A stretch of DNA of 64,000 nucleotides from an uncultured virus (IMG/VR IMGVR_UViG_3300037483_000303) (Duplodnaviria > Heunggongvirae > Uroviricota > Caudoviricetes): the IMG/VR virus record IMGVR_UViG_3300037483_000303; one strand, written 5' to 3'. The first letter of the stretch is position 1; each line of letters starts with the position of its first letter. The position numbers were made by a program, and so were the translations under genes. Below the pieces are notes generated by a model. The model saw nothing but the letters and a program-made list of their open reading frames with translations. It was not told the origin of the DNA and ran no database searches. Of the stretch, positions 889 through 58,589 are shown one piece after another.

Positions 889-1407
889 ATGAAACAGTGT
901 ACCTATTGCCAAGAAATTAAGAATTTGGATGAATTTTCCCCTGGGACAGCTAAATTTGGCCGACAATCCAGATGTAAAAAATGTCTTGCGAAATTGGCTA
1001 AGATTTATGGAAGCACCGAAAAAGGAAAAGCATACCAACAACAATACTGGAAAAGTGAAGCTGGAAAAGATAATCTGAGGAAGTATAGGGAAAGCGAAAA
1101 AGGTAGACAGACAGCGCGAAAGTATATTCATAGCGAGAATGGCAGCAAGGTCCTTAGAGAGTATAACAGAAAAAGAAGAATTGCACATAGGGATATGTAC
1201 AGAGCCAGAAACGTAGTAAACAATGCAGTTGCAGACGGAATTCTGCCTAAAATATCCACACAAAAATGTGTCCATTGCAATAAAAGTGCTCAAGATTATC
1301 ACCATTATAAAGGTTATGACAAAGAGAATTGGTTAGCTGTCGAACCTGTATGCCGAAAATGTCATAGGATACTTGAAAAGAAGTCACCAAACACGCTTGT
1401 AGTGTAA
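889..1407 (+). CDS. HNH homing endonuclease with N-terminal Zn finger
   Basis: CTYC...CKKC, then CVHC...YHHYKGYDKENWLAVEPVCRKCH; likely start ATG 889 after GGAG. Confidence 0.8.
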   Translation: MKQCTYCQEIKNLDEFSPGTAKFGRQSRCKKCLAKLAKIYGSTEKGKAYQQQYWKSEAGKDNLRKYRESEKGRQTARKYIHSENGSKVLREYNRKRRIAHRDMYRARNVVNNAVADGILPKISTQKCVHCNKSAQDYHHYKGYDKENWLAVEPVCRKCHRILEKKSPNTLVV

Positions 1408-2537
1408 TCCAAATCCTCTCGTGTTAGATTTTGGTGACAGCCGATATAAAAGCCGTTATCGTCTATCCATCTTGCCACCGGGTAATCTTCCGGCTCCCAT
1501 AATCCTTTATAAACAGGTTGGCTAACCAGGGGCAACATTAGCCGCGTCTCAATGCCATTAGATTCGAGATGACGACATAACGCATCCCTCACACCCTCCT
1601 GCCGGCACACTAATGGGTACATTTGAAAAGCGTGTTCGGTATTCGGCCTGATGGCTGGCAATTGCAATCTATCCTCAAATGGCTTAAGACCCTCCGTGAG
1701 ATAGGCTGCGTTCTGTTGGCGCTTGCGGATAATGGCGGGTAAGTCATCCAATTGCGCCAGTCCTAAAGCGGCCTCTAACTCGGTCAAACGAAAGCTATGG
1801 CCTATGCGGGTAAAGCGAAACTTGCGAGCTAACCAGGTGGGGTCGTATTGTTCGCCGGTGGGGAGTTCGGCCAGGTCAATACCATGATTGACGAGACTTC
1901 TCATTATCTTAGCATAGTTTGGGTTATTGGTCGTGGCAATGCCGCCAACGCCGGTTACGAGAATATGGGCTATGTAGGTGCTAAATACCCCGATGTCACT
2001 CAGGCAACCTACAGAGGTATTGCAATGTTTAACTGCCATTGCCTCACAACTATCTTCCATAACCTTAATCGGGTATACCTCTGGATTAAGCCAATTAACA
2101 GTGTTTTGCACCTCAGGCATATCACAGGGCTGTCCAAATGTGTGAACAGGGATAATACAACGTGTCTTGTAACTAATAGTTCTTATCAACTGTTCAGTAT
2201 CTATCCCGTAAAAGTCCGGTTCAACATCCACCAACACCGGCTTTAGTCTCAACTGCAAAACCACGTTCACAGTGGCAACAAATGTAAGCGCCGGGACGAT
2301 AACCTCATCCCCGTCCTGCCACCCGTGCAATTCCTTAAGCGTCTGCAAGGCAACTAACAGACTACTTGTGCCGCTATTACTCAATACACCATACTTGCAA
2401 CCGTGCATCTCGGCAAAGCGAGCCTCGAACTGCTGAGATAGAGGACCATACGAAATTCTACCCGACCGTAATACCTGATTAACTAGCCTGAACATCTCAG
2501 GCGTTGCCTCAAATGTGCCGATGCCGATTTGTCTCAC
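1362..2537 (-). CDS. DegT/DnrJ/EryC1/StrS family PLP-dependent sugar aminotransferase
   Basis: NSGTSSL, GDEVIVPALTFVAT, EDSCEA, FSTYIAHILVTGVGG (His at the usual Lys position, as in ColD/E1-type dehydrases). Confidence 0.9.
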   Translation of the reverse strand: MRQIGIGTFEATPEMFRLVNQVLRSGRISYGPLSQQFEARFAEMHGCKYGVLSNSGTSSLLVALQTLKELHGWQDGDEVIVPALTFVATVNVVLQLRLKPVLVDVEPDFYGIDTEQLIRTISYKTRCIIPVHTFGQPCDMPEVQNTVNWLNPEVYPIKVMEDSCEAMAVKHCNTSVGCLSDIGVFSTYIAHILVTGVGGIATTNNPNYAKIMRSLVNHGIDLAELPTGEQYDPTWLARKFRFTRIGHSFRLTELEAALGLAQLDDLPAIIRKRQQNAAYLTEGLKPFEDRLQLPAIRPNTEHAFQMYPLVCRQEGVRDALCRHLESNGIETRLMLPLVSQPVYKGLWEPEDYPVARWIDDNGFYIGCHQNLTREDLDYTTSVFGDFFSSIL

Positions 2538-2815
2538 TCTATTCTATACTCCGTTACTATTTGTACCGGCCGAGGTGCTACTATTTCACCTTTGATTATC
2601 AGGTATGAACATTCTGGCCAGTAATTAGGAGACTTGTCTGGCATTTTATCCAGGAATGTCGGTTCATCCCCATAGTCACCATTGGAAATATCTTTAAGTA
2701 GCTTGCCTGGGTCTATTTCTTCGATGTAAGTATCGCCATCATCGTTGCTAATCATAAAGTAAGCCATTTTTTTAACATCCTTACCACTTCGACTAAATGC
2801 TGCGTTCTTAACCAA
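2534..2815 (-). CDS. Hypothetical protein
   Basis: ORF within the operon; start may be internal (MAYFMI...). Confidence 0.55.
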   Translation of the reverse strand: MVKNAAFSRSGKDVKKMAYFMISNDDGDTYIEEIDPGKLLKDISNGDYGDEPTFLDKMPDKSPNYWPECSYLIIKGEIVAPRPVQIVTEYRIE

Positions 2816-3441
2816 ACCTCGTCGGCATAAACCCTTTCAATACCAAGCAGGTTGGATTCGTAGGCCAGGCCATTAACTTGAATATAGTTGATATTTCTCA
2901 AAAGGATTGTACACCATTCAACGTCAATGCAGGCCGGATTTATCGCCTTTGAGTTATTCAATATCGTCGCCGCTGCATGTCTGGTTATCCCACGTGAGGC
3001 GGCCAAAACATCATACTTGCCATCCATGAATAGGCTATTTATTAGCCCCTCAGTTATCCGCTGATAGTCAGGATGCGAATCAAAGGCCGCTTTGGTTCGA
3101 CCAATGATCGTAAATTTATCACATTGGATAAGCCGGATAACCTGTTTTAGCTCTTCCGGGTAGGTCATATACCAGTAGAGAAGCCGGTCGAAGTCTACAA
3201 AGTGGAAATACTCGCAATCTGTCTCTAGCCCGCGCCTGAGACAGTTACGCCGGGATTCGCCAATGTTCCCGGCCTCTGAATAGCTTATGTATTTATCTAA
3301 ACATAAGCTATGTTTAGTCGGGTTGGTCGATTCTATGATGCACTTATCGTAATTCTGCCGGATGTATAAAAAGTATTTATTGGTCAGGTCAGCTAGCTTG
3401 CCATCTGGATCGTGCAGGGTGGTGAGTAGACAAATAGACAT
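2752..3441 (-). CDS. Putative glycosyltransferase-like (GT-A) protein
   Basis: IGESRRNCLRRG...YFHFVDFD (DxD); next to a sugar aminotransferase. Confidence 0.5.
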   Translation of the reverse strand: MSICLLTTLHDPDGKLADLTNKYFLYIRQNYDKCIIESTNPTKHSLCLDKYISYSEAGNIGESRRNCLRRGLETDCEYFHFVDFDRLLYWYMTYPEELKQVIRLIQCDKFTIIGRTKAAFDSHPDYQRITEGLINSLFMDGKYDVLAASRGITRHAAATILNNSKAINPACIDVEWCTILLRNINYIQVNGLAYESNLLGIERVYADEVWLRTQHLVEVVRMLKKWLTL

Positions 3442-4142
3442 TATGGTATCAATCCCAATTCGCGCATCTCTGCAACGTCACCGACCTTTAATTCGTCTAA
3501 CAACAACTTGCTTGTATCCTGCCCTCTGAAGGCCAGCGTGTGACGAAGTGGCCACTGTCGCGTGCCCAGACAAAGCGCCTCAGTATGGGACAGTCGCACC
3601 GTCCCGACCATCTCTATCTCATGGGGCGATTCACCAGGGATGAGCACCTTTTTGAGTAAGTCCCGATTCCACAATCCAGCCATCAACGACATATGATAAG
3701 GCGATCCCGGCATACTCTTAACCAGGTCTAAATAGGCTACCGTGCCATAATTCAGGTCAGCGCCAAAAGCGTAAAGCCGGTCGCCGCATAGGTCTATTTT
3801 GACTGTATACTTGAATTGTCTAGCATAGTCATAGAGGATTTTAATAGCCTTTGTGTCAACCTGCCGGGTGAGCCAGTAATCCTCTAGCATCAACAGAAAG
3901 ACTTCCTCGGCTACATTATCTAATACGTTAATAAGCGCGTCTGACCACTTGCTAAAAGGATAATCGGCGAATTTGCCAATTGAGTAGAATGAGAATTTCT
4001 TGGATAGTTCAAAGGTTGGCGGAGTGAAGCCGCAGATAACGTTGTTCTTGGATATGTCGGGAGTAAAGTATTTATCCCACAACCACATAAAGGGCTTGCA
4101 GGCCCAGAGATACTTGTCCGAGGTCATTACTATGGTTTGCAA
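3441..4142 (-). CDS. Putative glycosyltransferase-like protein
   Basis: TSDKY, WSDAL, FLLMLEDYWL, SLMAGLWN motifs typical of phage GT-like proteins. Confidence 0.55.
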   Translation of the reverse strand: MQTIVMTSDKYLWACKPFMWLWDKYFTPDISKNNVICGFTPPTFELSKKFSFYSIGKFADYPFSKWSDALINVLDNVAEEVFLLMLEDYWLTRQVDTKAIKILYDYARQFKYTVKIDLCGDRLYAFGADLNYGTVAYLDLVKSMPGSPYHMSLMAGLWNRDLLKKVLIPGESPHEIEMVGTVRLSHTEALCLGTRQWPLRHTLAFRGQDTSKLLLDELKVGDVAEMRELGLIP

Positions 4143-4343
4143 TTACTTGCTCCACACCCAAATGCTACAAAATACCGTCTCTGCCCCCAATAACGCAGAG
4201 ATAACCGGATGATCTCCCAGTGCCCATGTTATCAAAAGTACCAATGAAAGATTGATAACAATTATGATAATGGTCAGGATAATCTTTATGATAACTCGCA
4301 ACTTAACTCCTCTTGATTCTTTTTGTCCCACTCTACCATACAA
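4143..4343 (-). CDS. Small membrane protein
   Basis: Two hydrophobic segments. Confidence 0.4.
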   Translation of the reverse strand: MYGRVGQKESRGVKLRVIIKIILTIIIIVINLSLVLLITWALGDHPVISALLGAETVFCSIWVWSK

Positions 4344-4579
4344 TCATTAAGGATGTATTCAATAGCTTCGACAAATTCAGTATCATTGCTAAATCTTCTT
4401 TTAGGACGAAATGACGGCATAGGAGGCCAGCATAGCCAGGAGTATGGATCATTATGAAATGTCTCAATTGTTAGCTTGAATATCCTTTCTCCATTCTCTG
4501 CGTTTATCACTGGTAAATCAGCAGTTAGGATGTATCTGGTTTGATGTATGTTTTCGGCTTTGCCTACTATAACTTGCAA
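4286..4579 (-). CDS. Hypothetical protein
   Basis: ORF within the operon. Confidence 0.5.
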   Translation of the reverse strand: MQVIVGKAENIHQTRYILTADLPVINAENGERIFKLTIETFHNDPYSWLCWPPMPSFRPKRRFSNDTEFVEAIEYILNDCMVEWDKKNQEELSCELS

Positions 4580-4714: not shown

Positions 4715-4975
4715 TCATCCGTTGCATATCTCCCCGAATATGTACATCTGACAATTGCAAAATTCGCCCATTGCCGGATTGTTGCTAGAAAATAGGTGTG
4801 TACCGTTGGCACAAAGTTGAGAAGTACCTAGCCTATAACGAGGCGTGTGGCTGTCCTTTTTGGCGCGTTCTAGCAGATACTCAATGTGCTTGTTTTTGGA
4901 ACGATGGCTTTGACGGGATTGCTCCTTCAGCCAGGTATTGAGATCATCATCAATAATAAGAGTGAATCTAACCAT
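4715..4975 (-). CDS. Arc/ribbon-helix-helix transcriptional regulator (leaderless)
   Basis: MVRFTLIIDDDLNTWLKEQSRQSHRSKNKHIEYLLE; ATG 4975 lies about 8 nt downstream of the -10 box. Confidence 0.75.
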   Translation of the reverse strand: MVRFTLIIDDDLNTWLKEQSRQSHRSKNKHIEYLLERAKKDSHTPRYRLGTSQLCANGTHLFSSNNPAMGEFCNCQMYIFGEICNG

Positions 4976-4982
4976 AGTAACT

Positions 4983-5011
4983 ATTTTAATACCATTCAGG
5001 TGATATGTCAA
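4983..5011 (-). promoter_or_regulatory. Sigma70-type promoter with operator
   Basis: TTGACA-17-TAAAAT; spacer taTCACCTGAATGGTat. Confidence 0.75.
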
Positions 5012-5012
5012 C

Positions 5013-5038
5013 AAAAAAAGGCCAGGGCTATCCTGGTT
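5013..5038 (-). terminator. Intrinsic terminator closing the repeat array
   Basis: CCAGG-atagc-CCTGG followed by T7 on the minus strand. Confidence 0.6.
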
Positions 5039-5040
5039 AA

Positions 5041-5340
5041 TCCTCGCCTCGCCCCGCCTTGCCATGCCATGCCCGGCCGTGCCAAGCCTGCCAAGCCCTG
5101 CCCAGCCGCGCCCCTCCGGGCCTTGCCATACCGCACCTCGCCTGCCTTGCCATGCCTCGCCGTGCCTGCCAATCCTTGCCGCACCGGGCCTCGCCCATCC
5201 CATCCGCGCCACGCCACGTCTCGCCTAGCCTGCCTCTCCACGCCATTCCTTGCCCAGACTTGCCACGCCTCGCCTGCCTCGCCTTGCCAATCCCAGCCCC
5301 GCCTCGCCGTACCAGGCCGCGCCCCGCCGCGCCTGCCTTG
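5041..5340 (-). ncRNA. (GGY-NN)n pentamer array, putative guide RNA precursor (VIPR-like)
   Basis: About 54 constant-triplet plus variable-dinucleotide units in exact 5-nt phase, interrupted by six GGCAGGC delimiters. Confidence 0.8.
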
Positions 5341-5778
5341 TCAGGTCACTTTAGTCATTATCTCGGCCATCTGTTCAAACACGGGTGCAAGCTCTTTAAG
5401 CTGCTGGTATTTCTTTTGCCACAACTTGAAATCGTTGTAGGCTTGGGCAAGTAGCTCTTTACGTTGCTGGTCATTGCTCATCACGTCAACCAGAGCACGA
5501 TAGCCGCCGCCATTTGAGCGATCAGATTTGAGCGAGACAAACATTTGATATTCTCTCTTGCCCTCACGCGGTAGAATTGTCAATACTACTGTGATTATTT
5601 GGCGAGCTTGCCATAAACGATAGGCATGGGCCGCCTCGGTATCATTCCACTCGAAACTGCTATGTAGGGCCGTATTGGGGTCTTTAGCGTACTTGACCAC
5701 TATCTCTGGGAGCAGCAGGCCATTATTGGCCTCGGCCAGTGATTCTAGCTCTTGCTTGACTAAATCTGACTTACTCAT
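5341..5778 (-). CDS. Accessory protein of the RAMP-like/pentamer-array cassette
   Basis: Coupled to the upstream gene; LHSSFEWND..AAHAYRLWQARQII; stop codon abuts the array. Confidence 0.75.
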   Translation of the reverse strand: MSKSDLVKQELESLAEANNGLLLPEIVVKYAKDPNTALHSSFEWNDTEAAHAYRLWQARQIITVVLTILPREGKREYQMFVSLKSDRSNGGGYRALVDVMSNDQQRKELLAQAYNDFKLWQKKYQQLKELAPVFEQMAEIMTKVT

Positions 5779-6397
5779 TGATTACCTCGAACATTCCCCA
5801 TCCCATCCCGGCTGATTGCTTGCTATCGGGTCTGCCCTCTCCAATGCCCACCTGTAAACCCACCCGCATCAACAGGTTAGATACATCTGCGGGGGTAAAC
5901 TGGTCCGCATCGAAACGAATACGGAGCTTAGTTTCCCAACCCGGCTGCCATAATCCGCGGGGGTGAATATCGGGAGCGCCATTACTGACACGTACCACGC
6001 TCTCGAAGTATTCAGGCTCGCCCTTTGTGATTTTCACCAGGGGCGTTGCATCGTCTTTATCAAACCCGTCAGCCTCGATAAAGATAGATAACTTTGCCAA
6101 AGTCATCCTGAAGCCAACTGTCCGACAAGCTGAAATCATTGCCGCTCTAAAGGCAGGGGCAGGCATCCCGTACCAGCCCTCAGCAGACTGATGCAATGAT
6201 TGCTCATAAGCCTCTTGAAAGTTCTTTGATTCCCGCTTTGAGCCTTTTTTGCTAGTTGACCCCCCTTCCTGAGTCCGCTTCATCATCTCTCTGGCCTTAC
6301 TGCTGAATTTGTTTTGCACATAAGGCGCAATCCCTCTAATGAGAAATTTAGCCGTTTGAAAATTAGGTGCGCTGATTGTTACCTGTTCTATTGCCAT
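5771..6397 (-). CDS. Cas7/RAMP-like RNA-binding protein (Vipr-like)
   Basis: N-terminal strand IRGIAPY, GMPAPAFRAAMISA, and C-terminal G-rich loop GLQVGIGEGRP...GMGWGMFEV. Confidence 0.75.
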   Translation of the reverse strand: MAIEQVTISAPNFQTAKFLIRGIAPYVQNKFSSKAREMMKRTQEGGSTSKKGSKRESKNFQEAYEQSLHQSAEGWYGMPAPAFRAAMISACRTVGFRMTLAKLSIFIEADGFDKDDATPLVKITKGEPEYFESVVRVSNGAPDIHPRGLWQPGWETKLRIRFDADQFTPADVSNLLMRVGLQVGIGEGRPDSKQSAGMGWGMFEVINE

Positions 6398-6431
6398 AAT
6401 CCTCCACTCAATGTTAGGTTAATTTCTAACT

Positions 6432-6460
6432 ATCATATCACCAAACTGGTGACTTGTCAA
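6432..6460 (-). promoter_or_regulatory. Promoter of the RAMP-like operon with palindromic operator
   Basis: TTGACA-17-TATGAT; spacer contains TCACCA-gtt-TGGTGA. Confidence 0.8.
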
Positions 6461-6462
6461 AT

Positions 6463-6494
6463 AAAAAAAGAGAGTGCCGGTTATGGCACTCTCT
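6463..6494 (-). terminator. Intrinsic terminator after the capsid gene
   Basis: Perfect 10-bp stem AGAGAGTGCC/GGCACTCTCT plus T run. Confidence 0.85.
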
Positions 6495-24750: not shown

Positions 24751-25377
24751 TCATTTTAGCGGCGTTCTTCCTGACCGCCTGATCTCTTCTCCGATAGCCA
24801 ATTTATTGTCTAGCACGACCTCCCGTATCTTGTAAAGGGCCATCCATCCGCTAACTGCCTGTTCTAAATTGCCCAGTGTATGAACAGTCTGCCCCAGTTG
24901 CGCTTTAGCATTAGGCGGCAGATTCACAACTTCGAGCACATTGAGTATATCCAGCCGGGACTGGTGGACCTTGTTCAGATTCCCATTAAGGTCAATCAGT
25001 ACTTTGGCCGCATCTTCGTTTTGCCTGGCCAGTACCCAGACGGCCATTAGGCGTTCATTTTGATGTACCTGATACTTACGATAACCGCCAACCAGCAGAC
25101 CAACAGCTACCGTCAAGAAGCTGACCTGAATCGCCCGACTGACATCTAATGGGATAGCCAGTAGACTATAAGCCGAAATGAGAATAGATAATGTAATACT
25201 GTAGCGTAGACCTGCGACCAAGCCGCCTATGAGCAGAAATAGCCATAGCCAGCTAAGTGTCACAGAGAAACCAAATATCATGCTGGCAGTATGGTAAGCT
25301 ATGCTAAAGAGAATAGCACCGGTAAAGCCAATCCACCTGGGGATAGAGAATAGCCAGTCGAATAACCTATTTACCAA
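24751..25377 (-). CDS. Multi-TM membrane protein with a C-terminal coiled region
   Basis: About four hydrophobic helices followed by a soluble helical tail. Confidence 0.65.
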   Translation of the reverse strand: MVNRLFDWLFSIPRWIGFTGAILFSIAYHTASMIFGFSVTLSWLWLFLLIGGLVAGLRYSITLSILISAYSLLAIPLDVSRAIQVSFLTVAVGLLVGGYRKYQVHQNERLMAVWVLARQNEDAAKVLIDLNGNLNKVHQSRLDILNVLEVVNLPPNAKAQLGQTVHTLGNLEQAVSGWMALYKIREVVLDNKLAIGEEIRRSGRTPLK

Positions 25378-25891
25378 GATTATCCTTTATCTGTTTTGTC
25401 GCTCGTTCTAATGCCCGGATAATCTTAAATGCACTACCTATCATAGCAGCCTCGATTACCGCCTGAAATAGATTGTCCTCACTGGCGCTGGCAATCAAAT
25501 GTGTCAACTGGCCCGCGTTCTGTTCTAGCAACAAATCCACCCGGTCAAGTAACTCTTGTGGTGTAAATGGCTTGGACAGAAAACTGGTGATGTACGGATT
25601 GATGCCACTCACGTCTTTGGTACTGGCATAGCCACTGATTGCCAAGATTGGCATACCGGCCAGCATCGGCGCACCGGCCAGGATAGGAGCCAGGTCCGCG
25701 CCGGTCGGGACAGAGTGCTCAAGCATAATATCCAGGATCGTGAGCTCCGGCTTGAATAGGCTAATTAACTTGAGTGCATCCTGCCCGGTTGACGCCTCGA
25801 CCACATAATGCTTTTTGTCGAATGTAGCTTTTATAAAGTCCCGAACTGTCTTGTCGTCGTCTATTAACAGAATGATTGCCATTAGTTCCAC
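25367..25891 (-). CDS. Response regulator receiver (REC) domain protein
   Basis: ILLIDDD, LTILDIML, LAISG, FLSKPF. Confidence 0.88.
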   Translation of the reverse strand: MELMAIILLIDDDKTVRDFIKATFDKKHYVVEASTGQDALKLISLFKPELTILDIMLEHSVPTGADLAPILAGAPMLAGMPILAISGYASTKDVSGINPYITSFLSKPFTPQELLDRVDLLLEQNAGQLTHLIASASEDNLFQAVIEAAMIGSAFKIIRALERATKQIKDNLGK

Positions 25892-34473: not shown

Positions 34474-34632
34474 AAGTGGTAAGATAGAGAGGCAAGAAAA
34501 AAAGCCAGTAACTTTGCCGGGTCGCTGGCTTTCTTCTTCTAAAAGGAAATTATCGGATGACTGACTACATAAATATTTTAACACGATCTAAGTAATATGT
34601 CAAGGTAGGCGCTATAGCGTGCTACCTTTTTT
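34457..34632. promoter_or_regulatory. Replication leader: sense promoter, antisense RNA promoter and terminator, leader peptide, attenuator hairpin
   Basis: Plus TAGACA-17-TAAGAT; minus TTGACA-17-TAAAAT at 34575-34603; hairpins 34501-34532 and 34602-34632. Confidence 0.65.
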
Positions 34633-43233: not shown

Positions 43234-46200
43234 TTGGAGGATGACATTATGAGACTTAATTTAGCGATCAATTTCCCCTCTCGCGGGCGCGGCCTCGGCG
43301 TGACCCGCAGCCCTTACCTGGGACGGCCCCGCCTGGGCTCCCACACCAGCCATAACTTCTCAATGAATCGGATGCAGAGCAGCTACGATCTGTATACCTT
43401 CGGCTTGCATTTCTGGCTAGTCTGGTAACTCAAATAAATGGAGGACGCTAATGACTGACACACTCAATATCCTACGCGCCAAAATAGAAGTGCTCACTTG
43501 TCAGGGTCACCAGCACATCGTTACCCGCTCCGGCACGATCATCAGCGTGAGCACCAAGCCGATGACCTACTGTACCATCGGCCAACACACCCGCTACATG
43601 CCTAATGGTCGCAATGTGATCTACCCACCAGCCACTAACTGCGAAGCCCTAAATATGGACACCAATCACGACCGAGGCTATCTGACCCTGGAAGAGGTGG
43701 CAGCCTGGGTAGATGAACTGGGCGGAGTGGAATCCATCGAGGATTTAGTGATGGCCGAGTATGATGATAGTGATGATCCATTCGGTGATTACCTGGCCTA
43801 CGGCGATGATGAACTCAGTCCCTATGGACGAATAAGCTGATCATGAATCTCGATTGCGAGATACTTCGTAATTACGACAGCGACCCCGTCAAAGCCGGGG
43901 CAAGGAGAGAAAAATGACACACGAAGTTAGACCATTAACCCAAGAAGAAGTTGACGCTTTTGCAGACTATCCTAATTTTGCTAATGTTGCAATGCTAAGT
44001 AGCGATGGCATTTGGTACTACGCCGAGAGCGACTTCCGGTATGGCGATGCTGGCGAGTATGAGGATATGACGATGTTTGTTACCGATGAAGACGGTGACT
44101 ACATCCCGGTAAAAACTAAATAGGCCGAAACACCCGAAAGGGTGTCTACCGAACTGAATCGGTACTGACGAGGCAAAACAAGGAGACGAAAATGCAAACA
44201 AAAAAGCTAGTCATCATCCGAGGCAAAGGCACAAAAGCCGAAACCCGCATCGAAACCGACATCATGCTTTACTGGTCGGCGGCAATGCAGCGTTGGGTTA
44301 GTATACCGGAATAGGAGCACATTATGACCACCCTCATCAACTTAATAAACCTCATTCGTGACATAGCTCGTGACGCCAAAATGTTAGAGAGCAATGAACT
44401 GGCCCGTAAATACGGGCGATAAATAAGATAGCCAGCACCCGTTTAAGCCGGGACAAGGAGAGAAATGATGGAAGCAGTTAAAATAACATACTTGAATGAT
44501 ATAGTTTATGTATATGAAGATGGTGGCGAGCCGATAGCCACCGTCCATTCAGATACAATGGCGATAATCTGGGAAAACAGCCAGGAAGAGCCATACCTGG
44601 GGGCTACCGTAGATGTACTAACGGCGGTAGCAAAAATCATGACGGAGGAAGAATGACTCCCACTGAACAAGCCGCCCTCCGCCAAGCCCGGCGCGTATGG
44701 CTCCAAAAAACTGAGGTTGTCCCCGCGAGAGGCTTTGATGCCGGTTTTGTGGCAGGACTGAGGTACAATCAGGCCAAAATTGGCAAGCTGGTCAGCTTCA
44801 TCAAAGGCGAAATACCACGAAGCGAAATCGAGGAGTTTTTACAATGAACACAAGAAAGTTAGACCCTGATTTAGTAAAAGACATCGCCAGTAACCTGGGA
44901 TGGGAAAAAGGTGAGGACATTGAGCCTTACCTGGAAGAGATAACCCGGATGACTCCAGAGCAAGCCCTTAAATGCTTTGCTGAGTGGACATTGGGTGATC
45001 GAGGATGGGCCACAATTTTTATCAGGCATATAGACCAGTTACGCGAGGCAAGTAAATGAGAGTCCTGTTCAATACCGCCGAGGGAATCCGCAAAGGTTTC
45101 GCGGTTAGATTCTACTCTTGCGGGCATCGCTTTTGGGTCCGCTGTCTTGACGGGTCTACCTACATTGTGGACCTGGCCGACTTAATCGGCACACGCGAAT
45201 TGAGGTTAAAATCGTGATCAGTACAATCGACTATACCAAAATGAGACGCAATTCAAGGATAGCTGGCCACTATATTGCAGTTTGCCCCAAGTGTGGCAAA
45301 AAAGGATTGTGCTTCATCTATCATAAAAAACGGGTAAATGTATACATGCACGAAGGCAAACGAACGCTTGAAGGTGTAGAGGTGACAAAATCCTGCCAGG
45401 TGACGATAGATGACTAGACAAATCACATCCGCTGAATCCGAGGCAATTACAGCCGCCCGACTGGACGCGTTTCAACAGGCCGACAAGTTTCTGGCAGGCT
45501 GGCTCGCCGGTATCAATCACGTTCGCCAGCAACGGGCCGCCGAGCTTGAAGTGGCCGACCTACTGTTAGCCGACCGGCAAGCTACGCTTGATAGGGAGAG
45601 GGCTGATCGGCTGGCCTATGACGAGACGATAGCTAAGCGGTTACAAGCGATAGTGGAGGCATTATGACCACACTCGAAGCCGGCATCCTTGAATCCGTTA
45701 CCCGCTACGAGCGCGAGTCGGGTCGCAAGTTGCCCGATAACAGCTTTTATAAAAGTATCGTTTTGGACATAATGAGAAAATATAAGGAGAGTAAAAAATG
45801 GCAGCCTGGGAATACAAAGTAAACATTAAACAGTATCTCAACCGTGAAGGTGAAGATGATATTGTTACCATTGCAGAGAACATTGCAAAGGAACTTGGCA
45901 ATGTTCCACCCTGGATTTTTCGCAACCTGCCCGCTAAACTTGTCGACGAGACAAGGACCGCAGTTGAGAAAATGCCAGATGACAAGGATTATCACGAACT
46001 GAAATTCAATAAAGTGCTGGATAGAATTTACGATGCGGCTGATGATTACCGGGTATGGCTAGGGTTGATGTGACATACAAAGGCTGGACTATCCACGCTG
46101 AACCAGACTCCATCACCGCCACGAAAGACGGCGAGGAGCTAACTATCCGCAAATTCGGCGCGGTCGAGAACGGGCTGCGACTGATGAGAAACGCGATAGA

Positions 46201-57971: not shown

Positions 57972-58589
57972 CTAATTACCCCGCATTTCGACTATCTTCC
58001 TGAATGTGCTATGGGTATACATCGGGACAGGATCAGTAAAGGGATTGCTTATTAGTGGGAACCCAAGTAACTGAGGTTGTTTGTAAAAAAACTCAACCGT
58101 TAAAAACCCATCAGGGCGGATGATAAGATTGGCCGCCTGCTGAGCACAACTATGCTTAATCTGTTCTTGCAGGGCCACACTAGCCAACTCGGTATAATTT
58201 AGGTTGGTAGTCTGCGGGCTGGTTAGTGGCATCTTCCAGGTATAGGTTGGCACGCCCAAAGGAGTAGTAACGGTAAATGTACCCGTGCAGGTTGCCTCTA
58301 CCTCAATGTAGCTGATAATCATTGTGTCCTTACCGGCGAAGTCTACAGGTAACTGATCCGCTAGTGTCTTGTAAGTATGGCTCAGTACCTTCTCATAACC
58401 CACCTGCTCGGCCCGGAAGTCCAGGTAATTCTGCCTCACGGCAAAGCGAGCCGCTTCACGATTGGCACCAGCAAGAACCAGATAGCCTCGTAATGCCCAT
58501 CCAACCTCGAATACACCAATAAGCAAAAAAATCAGGATAGGTGTAATAATTGCCATTTCGACAAGTGCCTGCCCGCGCTGAGTTATCAT
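57972..58589 (-). CDS. TadE/TadG-like pseudopilin
   Basis: QRG^QALVE prepilin motif, hydrophobic helix, ANREAARFA. Confidence 0.85.
   Translation of the reverse strand: MITQRGQALVEMAIITPILIFLLIGVFEVGWALRGYLVLAGANREAARFAVRQNYLDFRAEQVGYEKVLSHTYKTLADQLPVDFAGKDTMIISYIEVEATCTGTFTVTTPLGVPTYTWKMPLTSPQTTNLNYTELASVALQEQIKHSCAQQAANLIIRPDGFLTVEFFYKQPQLLGFPLISNPFTDPVPMYTHSTFRKIVEMRGN

Follow-up and report, generated by a model that had tools for sequence, protein, structure and literature searches.

The locus described here raises the question of whether a phage cassette composed of a gene for a small Cas7-like protein, a partner gene and a non-coding array of GGY-NN pentamers represents a working RNA-guided system, and if so, to which class it belongs and what it does. 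It lies in a window of 64 kb (by which we mean the whole stretch of DNA that was analysed) from an uncultured virus, in which matches to terminase subunits, a tape measure protein and a primase/helicase indicate a tailed phage, and these structural and replication genes provide the viral context of a VIPR locus. VIPR, published for the first time in 2026 (bioRxiv 10.64898/2026.04.26.720920), is related to CRISPR and silences DNA under the guidance of RNA; the sequence-only reading of this DNA, which had allowed that the class might not be new, was right in this respect. We find that the locus is real and intact and that it is a member of this published class, the locus itself and its guides being uncharacterised before; it is very probably a phage-borne VIPR silencing system with a staggered array.

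All parts of the cassette are encoded on the minus strand. It is insulated from the upstream structural operon by a strong intrinsic terminator (6469..6494) with a 10-pair stem and a T run, and begins with a promoter-like sequence, P1 (6432..6460), which agrees with the consensus at 11 of 12 positions and carries a TG extension. There follow the gene for the 208-aa stand-alone RAMP (Cas7-like) protein, vipr (5771..6397), and that for the 145-aa accessory protein, vap (5341..5778); the two ORFs overlap by 8 nt, by which vap is predicted to be translationally coupled to vipr. The GGY-NN array, delimited by analysis of the pentamer register (5337-5039; 299 nt, 73% G+C), starts 3 nt past the vap stop codon and is followed by a terminator (5013..5036) with a 5-pair stem (5036-5022) and a T run. 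The scans for ORFs, promoters and terminators thereby reproduced the coordinates of the discrete unit of promoter, two genes, array and terminator that had been proposed earlier, both ORFs being intact. The lower boundary at 4715, on the other hand, derived from a shadow frame: the real gene there is a 47-aa ORF (4832..4975, minus strand), encoding a ribbon-helix-helix protein (Arc/TraY-like; PHROG Arc-like match, E 6e-4), with its own promoter P2 (4983..5011, minus strand; 11/12 consensus). P2 lies behind the array terminator and ends 7 nt before the 47-aa gene, the transcript of which is probably leaderless. P1 (from 6460) and P2 (from 5011) each follow directly on the T run of the terminator before them, so that two terminator-promoter modules are stacked. 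Positions 5035-5265 of the window recur without a single difference in a contig of a second study, which argues that the array is not an assembly artefact. In another contig 3905 is linked to 6634, which would fit a genome without the cassette, with 35 letters on the short side of the junction. The upstream 499-aa gene had been called a capsid gene; gene order agrees with this, but searches of families and structures returned no match, and the profile of the protein was found neither in 401 genomes nor in GenBank phages. A diverged copy of this gene is present in a related 65-kb phage contig of the source assembly (run X1, contig record 3), a candidate competitor.

The assignment of the 208-aa protein to the RAMP superfamily, suggested earlier from short motifs, is upheld by structure prediction for 5771..6397 followed by a Foldseek search. 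An AlphaFold2 model built from 107 homologs (pLDDT 89.5) predicts an RRM core, a thumb and a G-loop within a stand-alone RAMP protein. Foldseek gave 39 PDB matches at E≤0.001 (best E 4e-5), all of them, among the matches listed, from Class 1 RAMP complexes, and the best VIA-align superposition had Z 11.4 and rmsd 3.7 over 151 aligned residues; with both programs the top matches were Csm3, Cmr proteins and the type VII Cas7. Membership of the VIPR class, which the sequence-only reading had suggested, is corroborated by a common family: Vipr of Escherichia phage SUSP1 (KT454805), which carries a type II VIPR system, belongs to phrog_4652 (E 8e-96), and the 208-aa protein matches the same family over residues 17-205 (E 2e-13). 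The identity between these two proteins is about 21%, and their hhalign comparison (77%, E 2e-5) covers only 57 columns; the profile of our Vipr alignment has the SUSP1 Vipr gene as its sole match in the SUSP1 genome, and the residues of that gene agree with the numbering in the Vipr structure preprint. The counterparts of SUSP1 R138, D177 and R179 in the alignment are R147, E187 and R189, none of which varies across the 107 homologs, so the thumb arginine and the acid and arginine of the G-loop are kept; according to that preprint, replacement of R138 or D177 of SUSP1 Vipr with alanine abolishes silencing. The two proteins differ in the G-loop, which is longer here, in the position of the invariant tryptophan (W200, with glycine at SUSP1 W178) and in the replacement of SUSP1 H17 by asparagine.

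Vipr relatives numbered 4669 among 4751 candidates, and the predicted co-occurrence of homologs with pentamer arrays was examined in 89 viral loci (9, the best 80 of 486, one in common, and one GenBank phage; not dereplicated) and 58 genome loci. The expectation held: an array, defined as a chain of at least eight GGY units, was found on the vipr strand in 83/89 viral and 51/58 genome loci, versus 0/89 and 1/58 on the other strand. A vap homolog adjoins vipr in 86 of the viral and 50 of the genome loci (of 89 and 58, respectively). Among individual phages, Cyanophage Cy-LDV1 (BK059895) encodes an unannotated Vipr homolog (55% identity) together with a partner gene and two staggered arrays, and Gordonia phages Pipp, ODay, Ecliptus and UmaThurman also carry unannotated homologs (31-35% identity).

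The array itself had been read as a run of GGY-NN pentamers in one register. The pentamers are real: GG pairs recur at lag 5 in 53 cases, whereas 2000 dinucleotide shuffles gave 17.9 on average (sd 3.4) and never more than 29, and all six runs of at least four GGY-NN units in the 64-kb window fall inside the array. The single register is not, as the array consists of six in-register tracts (11, 8, 12, 4, 10 and 10 pentamers). In front of each tract stands a GGCA of 4 nt, which displaces the register by one base, and the five internal slips have the fixed word GGCAGGC. Counted with their leading junctions, and in the order of transcription, the tracts are g1 (5279..5337; 11 units, 5333-5279), g2 (5235..5278; 8 units), g3 (5171..5234; 12 units), the short g4 (5147..5170; 4 units), g5 (5093..5146; 10 units) and g6 (5039..5092; 10 units), the last running into the terminator, all on the minus strand. 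Of the 55 in-register pentamers 53 start with GG and 45 with GGY, while eight have GGA. The tracts abut directly, without a structured tail of the SUSP1 type between them, and the array folds no better than its shuffles (z 0.54), as expected of a guide coated with protein. The same architecture is found in the relatives, where 359 minus-one and 20 plus-one register slips were counted, 322 of the 359 minus-one junctions carry the word xGCA, and 196 of the 214 tracts between two junctions (in whose definition the junction word itself was used) have 7-13 units. These statistics show the GGCAGGC slips to be the predicted guide boundaries. Tracts of 4 or 5 units account for only 9 of the 214, and g4 is probably a deletion remnant. 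The closest relative (L001, 84% Vipr identity; array at 4089-4372) and L015 (4066-4398) have far more degenerate scaffolds (GAC, AGC, GTG) and keep the junction word despite this.

Comparison with known systems places the locus most closely beside the staggered arrays reported in the original description (10.64898/2026.04.26.720920, Results and fig. S18 legend), whose guides overlap by 1 nt: phage-borne vipr and vap genes, GGY/NN tracts, the 1-nt overlap and the lack of a CRISPR array are common to both, and the tract length here and in the relatives (mostly 7-13) is in line with the 9-16 repeats published for VIPR. The resemblance to the SUSP1 type II system extends to a vap gene directly downstream of vipr, an array behind the genes and a silencing-type architecture without a nuclease. 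However, the two Vap proteins are unrelated (phrog_15946 here, phrog_5926 for SUSP1 Vap1), a search for homology between them gave no match, the pseudoknot tail or spacer of about 40 nt that separates SUSP1 guides is absent here, and the scaffold is dominated by GGC and tolerates GGA, in contrast to GGT in SUSP1. As neither a Vap1 homolog nor a structured 3' tail after each guide, the two marks of type II, is present, and the text that reports staggered arrays does not name the VIPR type carrying them, we classify the locus, by its sequence features, as a VIPR of the staggered-array class and attach no type I-VII number to it. The Class 1 CRISPR RAMPs (Csm3, Cmr, type VII Cas7) have the RRM core, thumb and glycine-rich loop in common with Vipr, at 7-18% identity, but pair contiguously with every sixth base flipped, whereas the code here would be discontinuous with a 5-nt period. 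No CRISPR repeat (Rfam) was found in the window, nor a repeat-spacer array with a multi-gene cas operon, and no Cas family was matched (33 ORFs versus PHROGs and 13 versus NCBIfam, of 65 ORFs of at least 95 aa).

The Vap partner is less readily placed. Its structure model is confident (pLDDT 89.9), but no fold was recognised (best Foldseek E 2.6, best VIA-align Z 4.3), no consistent Pfam family emerged over 62 family members, and its matches in the Atlas are only to unnamed viral clusters. Family and structure searches likewise recognised no nuclease signature in the vipr-vap unit, so the outcome would be binding and silencing.

As to the mechanism, P1 would give rise to a single vipr-vap-array transcript ending at the 5036 hairpin, and cutting or parsing of the array at the GGCAGGC slips may then yield about five guides, with 8-12 units each, and the 4-unit remnant. 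The cryo-EM and genetics preprints on the SUSP1 and P. fulva systems describe one protomer per pentamer with GGY buried, pairing of NN with double-stranded DNA in which every third base is skipped and no PAM is needed, and transcriptional repression as the outcome, with Vap required against a satellite. If this is transferred by homology, Vipr would polymerise here with one protomer per pentamer, holding GGY and presenting NN for PAM-independent pairing with double-stranded DNA, in which one target base in three would be left unread; such a mechanism, with silencing rather than cutting, had been proposed from the repeat pattern and accords with what those preprints show for the two characterised systems. 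The DNA of a competing element, be it a phage, a prophage or a satellite, would be bound and its transcription silenced, possibly with help from Vap.

It is also conceivable, though unlikely, that the whole array stays one long, unprocessed RNA, in which each slip does no more than separate one Vipr filament from the following one. The absence of a tail, hairpin or ribozyme between the tracts and of a recognised nuclease in the vipr-vap unit would agree with this, and a one-base slip by itself would be enough to interrupt a filament that advances in steps of 5 nt. Mere disruption of the frame, however, would not need a sequence-specific word such as xGCA in 322 of 359 junctions, and the fig. 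S18 legend of 10.64898/2026.04.26.720920 names individual processed vrRNAs in staggered arrays; the reading in which separate guides are released is therefore preferred.

Searches for the targets of these guides established none, which leaves the 1-nt skip rule for this clade resting on homology. Under skips of 0-3 over the 64-kb window, the best self matches with the 1-nt skip were 16/22, 13/16, 17/24, 15/20 and 15/20, and the four tracts of at least 10 units gave nothing above 77% with that skip. Cross-targeting among relatives (209 guides versus 1.19 Mb) gave 4 matches at 85% or better, versus 3 for shuffled guides. In viral contigs, exact 9-unit cores of g1 and g5 had no matches, and exact 8-unit cores had 4 (g3), 13 (g6), 12 (g1) and 8 (g5), all extending at chance level; the 10-unit core of g3 had no match in GTDB. 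In three related phages, the gene for a family A DNA polymerase is matched by guide g6 at 18-19 of 20 positions, with the skip on the wobble base. We set this match aside as unproven, since about three such matches are expected by chance, the remaining guides reach no more than 16/22, 13/16, 16/24 and 15/20 on those genomes, and the matched stretch is a variable insert, with 17/20 the best among 120 homologs. An anti-vipr reading of the guides was also discarded (best 15/20 over 120 Vipr proteins). The match of g3 to metagenome contig L255 (JAABUL010066508.1) is a lead only: it comprises 23/24 positions with the 1-nt skip, or 25/26 including the AG of the junction, with a nominal P of 0.04, or 0.003 counting the AG (from at least 110 core matches and before correction for several scans), and it places the skip on codon position 2; searches of the contig for phage, Pfam, Rfam and Atlas matches found none. 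Of seven models, sense codon positions 1-2 gave the best fit to NN usage across the clade (r 0.55), but this fit disappeared once single-base composition was corrected for (residual r 0.84 versus 0.84 for a generic model and 0.86 for another phase).

That no viral target survived the statistics might suggest that the system is aimed at genes of the host or at the phage's own regulation instead of rival elements, the more so as the self searches spanned 64 kb, with 11.8 kb of the 75.9-kb contig lying outside. We consider this improbable. There is no self match in those 64 kb, and the phylum of a Dehalococcoidia bin, picked on a hunch about the phage host, gave nothing above chance in 391 of its genomes, where g3 and g1 had no matches and g6 and g5 had 5 and 2 at 18/20, versus 4.4 expected, in unrelated genes; moreover, for the published VIPR clades no self targets are reported, and the reported targets are mostly mobile elements. 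From the 4-unit tract and from the 10 of 55 units that depart from GGY it might be argued that the cassette has decayed or does not function, or that it is an orphan cas7-like gene next to a low-complexity repeat. This is very improbable given the intact ORFs with promoter and terminator, the identical second-study copy of 5035-5265, the recurrence of the layout in most of the 147 related loci and the regular occurrence of GGA (222) and GAC (80) among 3040 scaffold units of the clade.

How a phage-borne silencing system of this kind is controlled is a separate matter, on which the neighbouring 47-aa gene may bear. A candidate operator lies in the P1 spacer as an inverted repeat of 6 bp (6438-6452), with TCACC-N4-TGGT on both strands, and the P2 spacer contains TCACC-N4-TGGT at 4991-5003; exact copies of this motif occur in the 64 kb only in these two spacers, at the same offset. 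The 47-aa protein could accordingly be pictured as a candidate repressor of both promoters through a common operator. We hold this to be possible and somewhat doubtful, because the motif was defined after the fact, promoter pairs equally alike are found elsewhere in the window (4 of 105 have at least 10 of 17 spacer bases in common, the best being P2 with the promoter at 34603), and no more than 3 of the 147 related loci have a profile match of the 47-aa protein at E<1e-5 close to vipr. Among relatives the motif had 4 matches versus 6 expected. Of 28 relatives of the protein, two pass the TraY cut-off and one the Arc cut-off, and the 47-aa gene is not a conserved part of the VIPR system. Aca-type autoregulators are small DNA-binding proteins encoded at the end of phage anti-CRISPR operons. 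The arrangement here resembles theirs in that the last gene of a counter-competition cassette encodes a small DNA-binding protein and the promoter contains a palindrome that is a candidate operator; it differs in the ribbon-helix-helix fold, the gene's own promoter and the rarity of the gene near vipr.

Since the VIPR class is already published, the locus itself changes little; it does provide a compact and intact test case for the cutting of staggered arrays, the role of this Vap family and the control of VIPR expression. For staggered arrays, the text of 10.64898/2026.04.26.720920 does not state a junction consensus, how they are processed or what regulates them, all of which its figures or supplements may show; nor do the available parts of 10.64898/2026.04.26.720927, 10.64898/2026.10.15.759431 and 10.64898/2026.10.21.760802. 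A bolder scheme, which as a whole we think unlikely, is that in this tail-less clade the GCAG junction is the maturation signal (recognised by Vipr, through a Cas6-like cut, or by Vap), that GGA and GAC units widen the code, and that the Arc-like repressor gates the cassette here. If it were true, one short junction word would do the work of the CRISPR repeat, and the repressor would be the first regulator dedicated to VIPR. If Vipr processes its own array at GCAG, guide maturation and target binding would be united in a single ancestral RAMP, and a multiplexed silencer would fit in less than 1.5 kb.

Elsewhere in the window, a type II hammerhead ribozyme (44123-44182, plus strand; Rfam RF02276, 39.8 bits, cut-off 37) is located between small genes, with no GGY-NN tract beside it. 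The region 1362-4142 (minus strand), which encodes a sugar aminotransferase (PseC/RfbH-like, below cut-offs) and two genes without assignment, is possibly a sugar or DNA modification cluster adjoining the cassette. The protein at 57975-58589 (minus strand) has no family match, and by eye we take it to resemble TadE pilins. Finally, a response-regulator receiver protein, identified by a family match, is encoded in this phage genome at 25370-25891 (minus strand).
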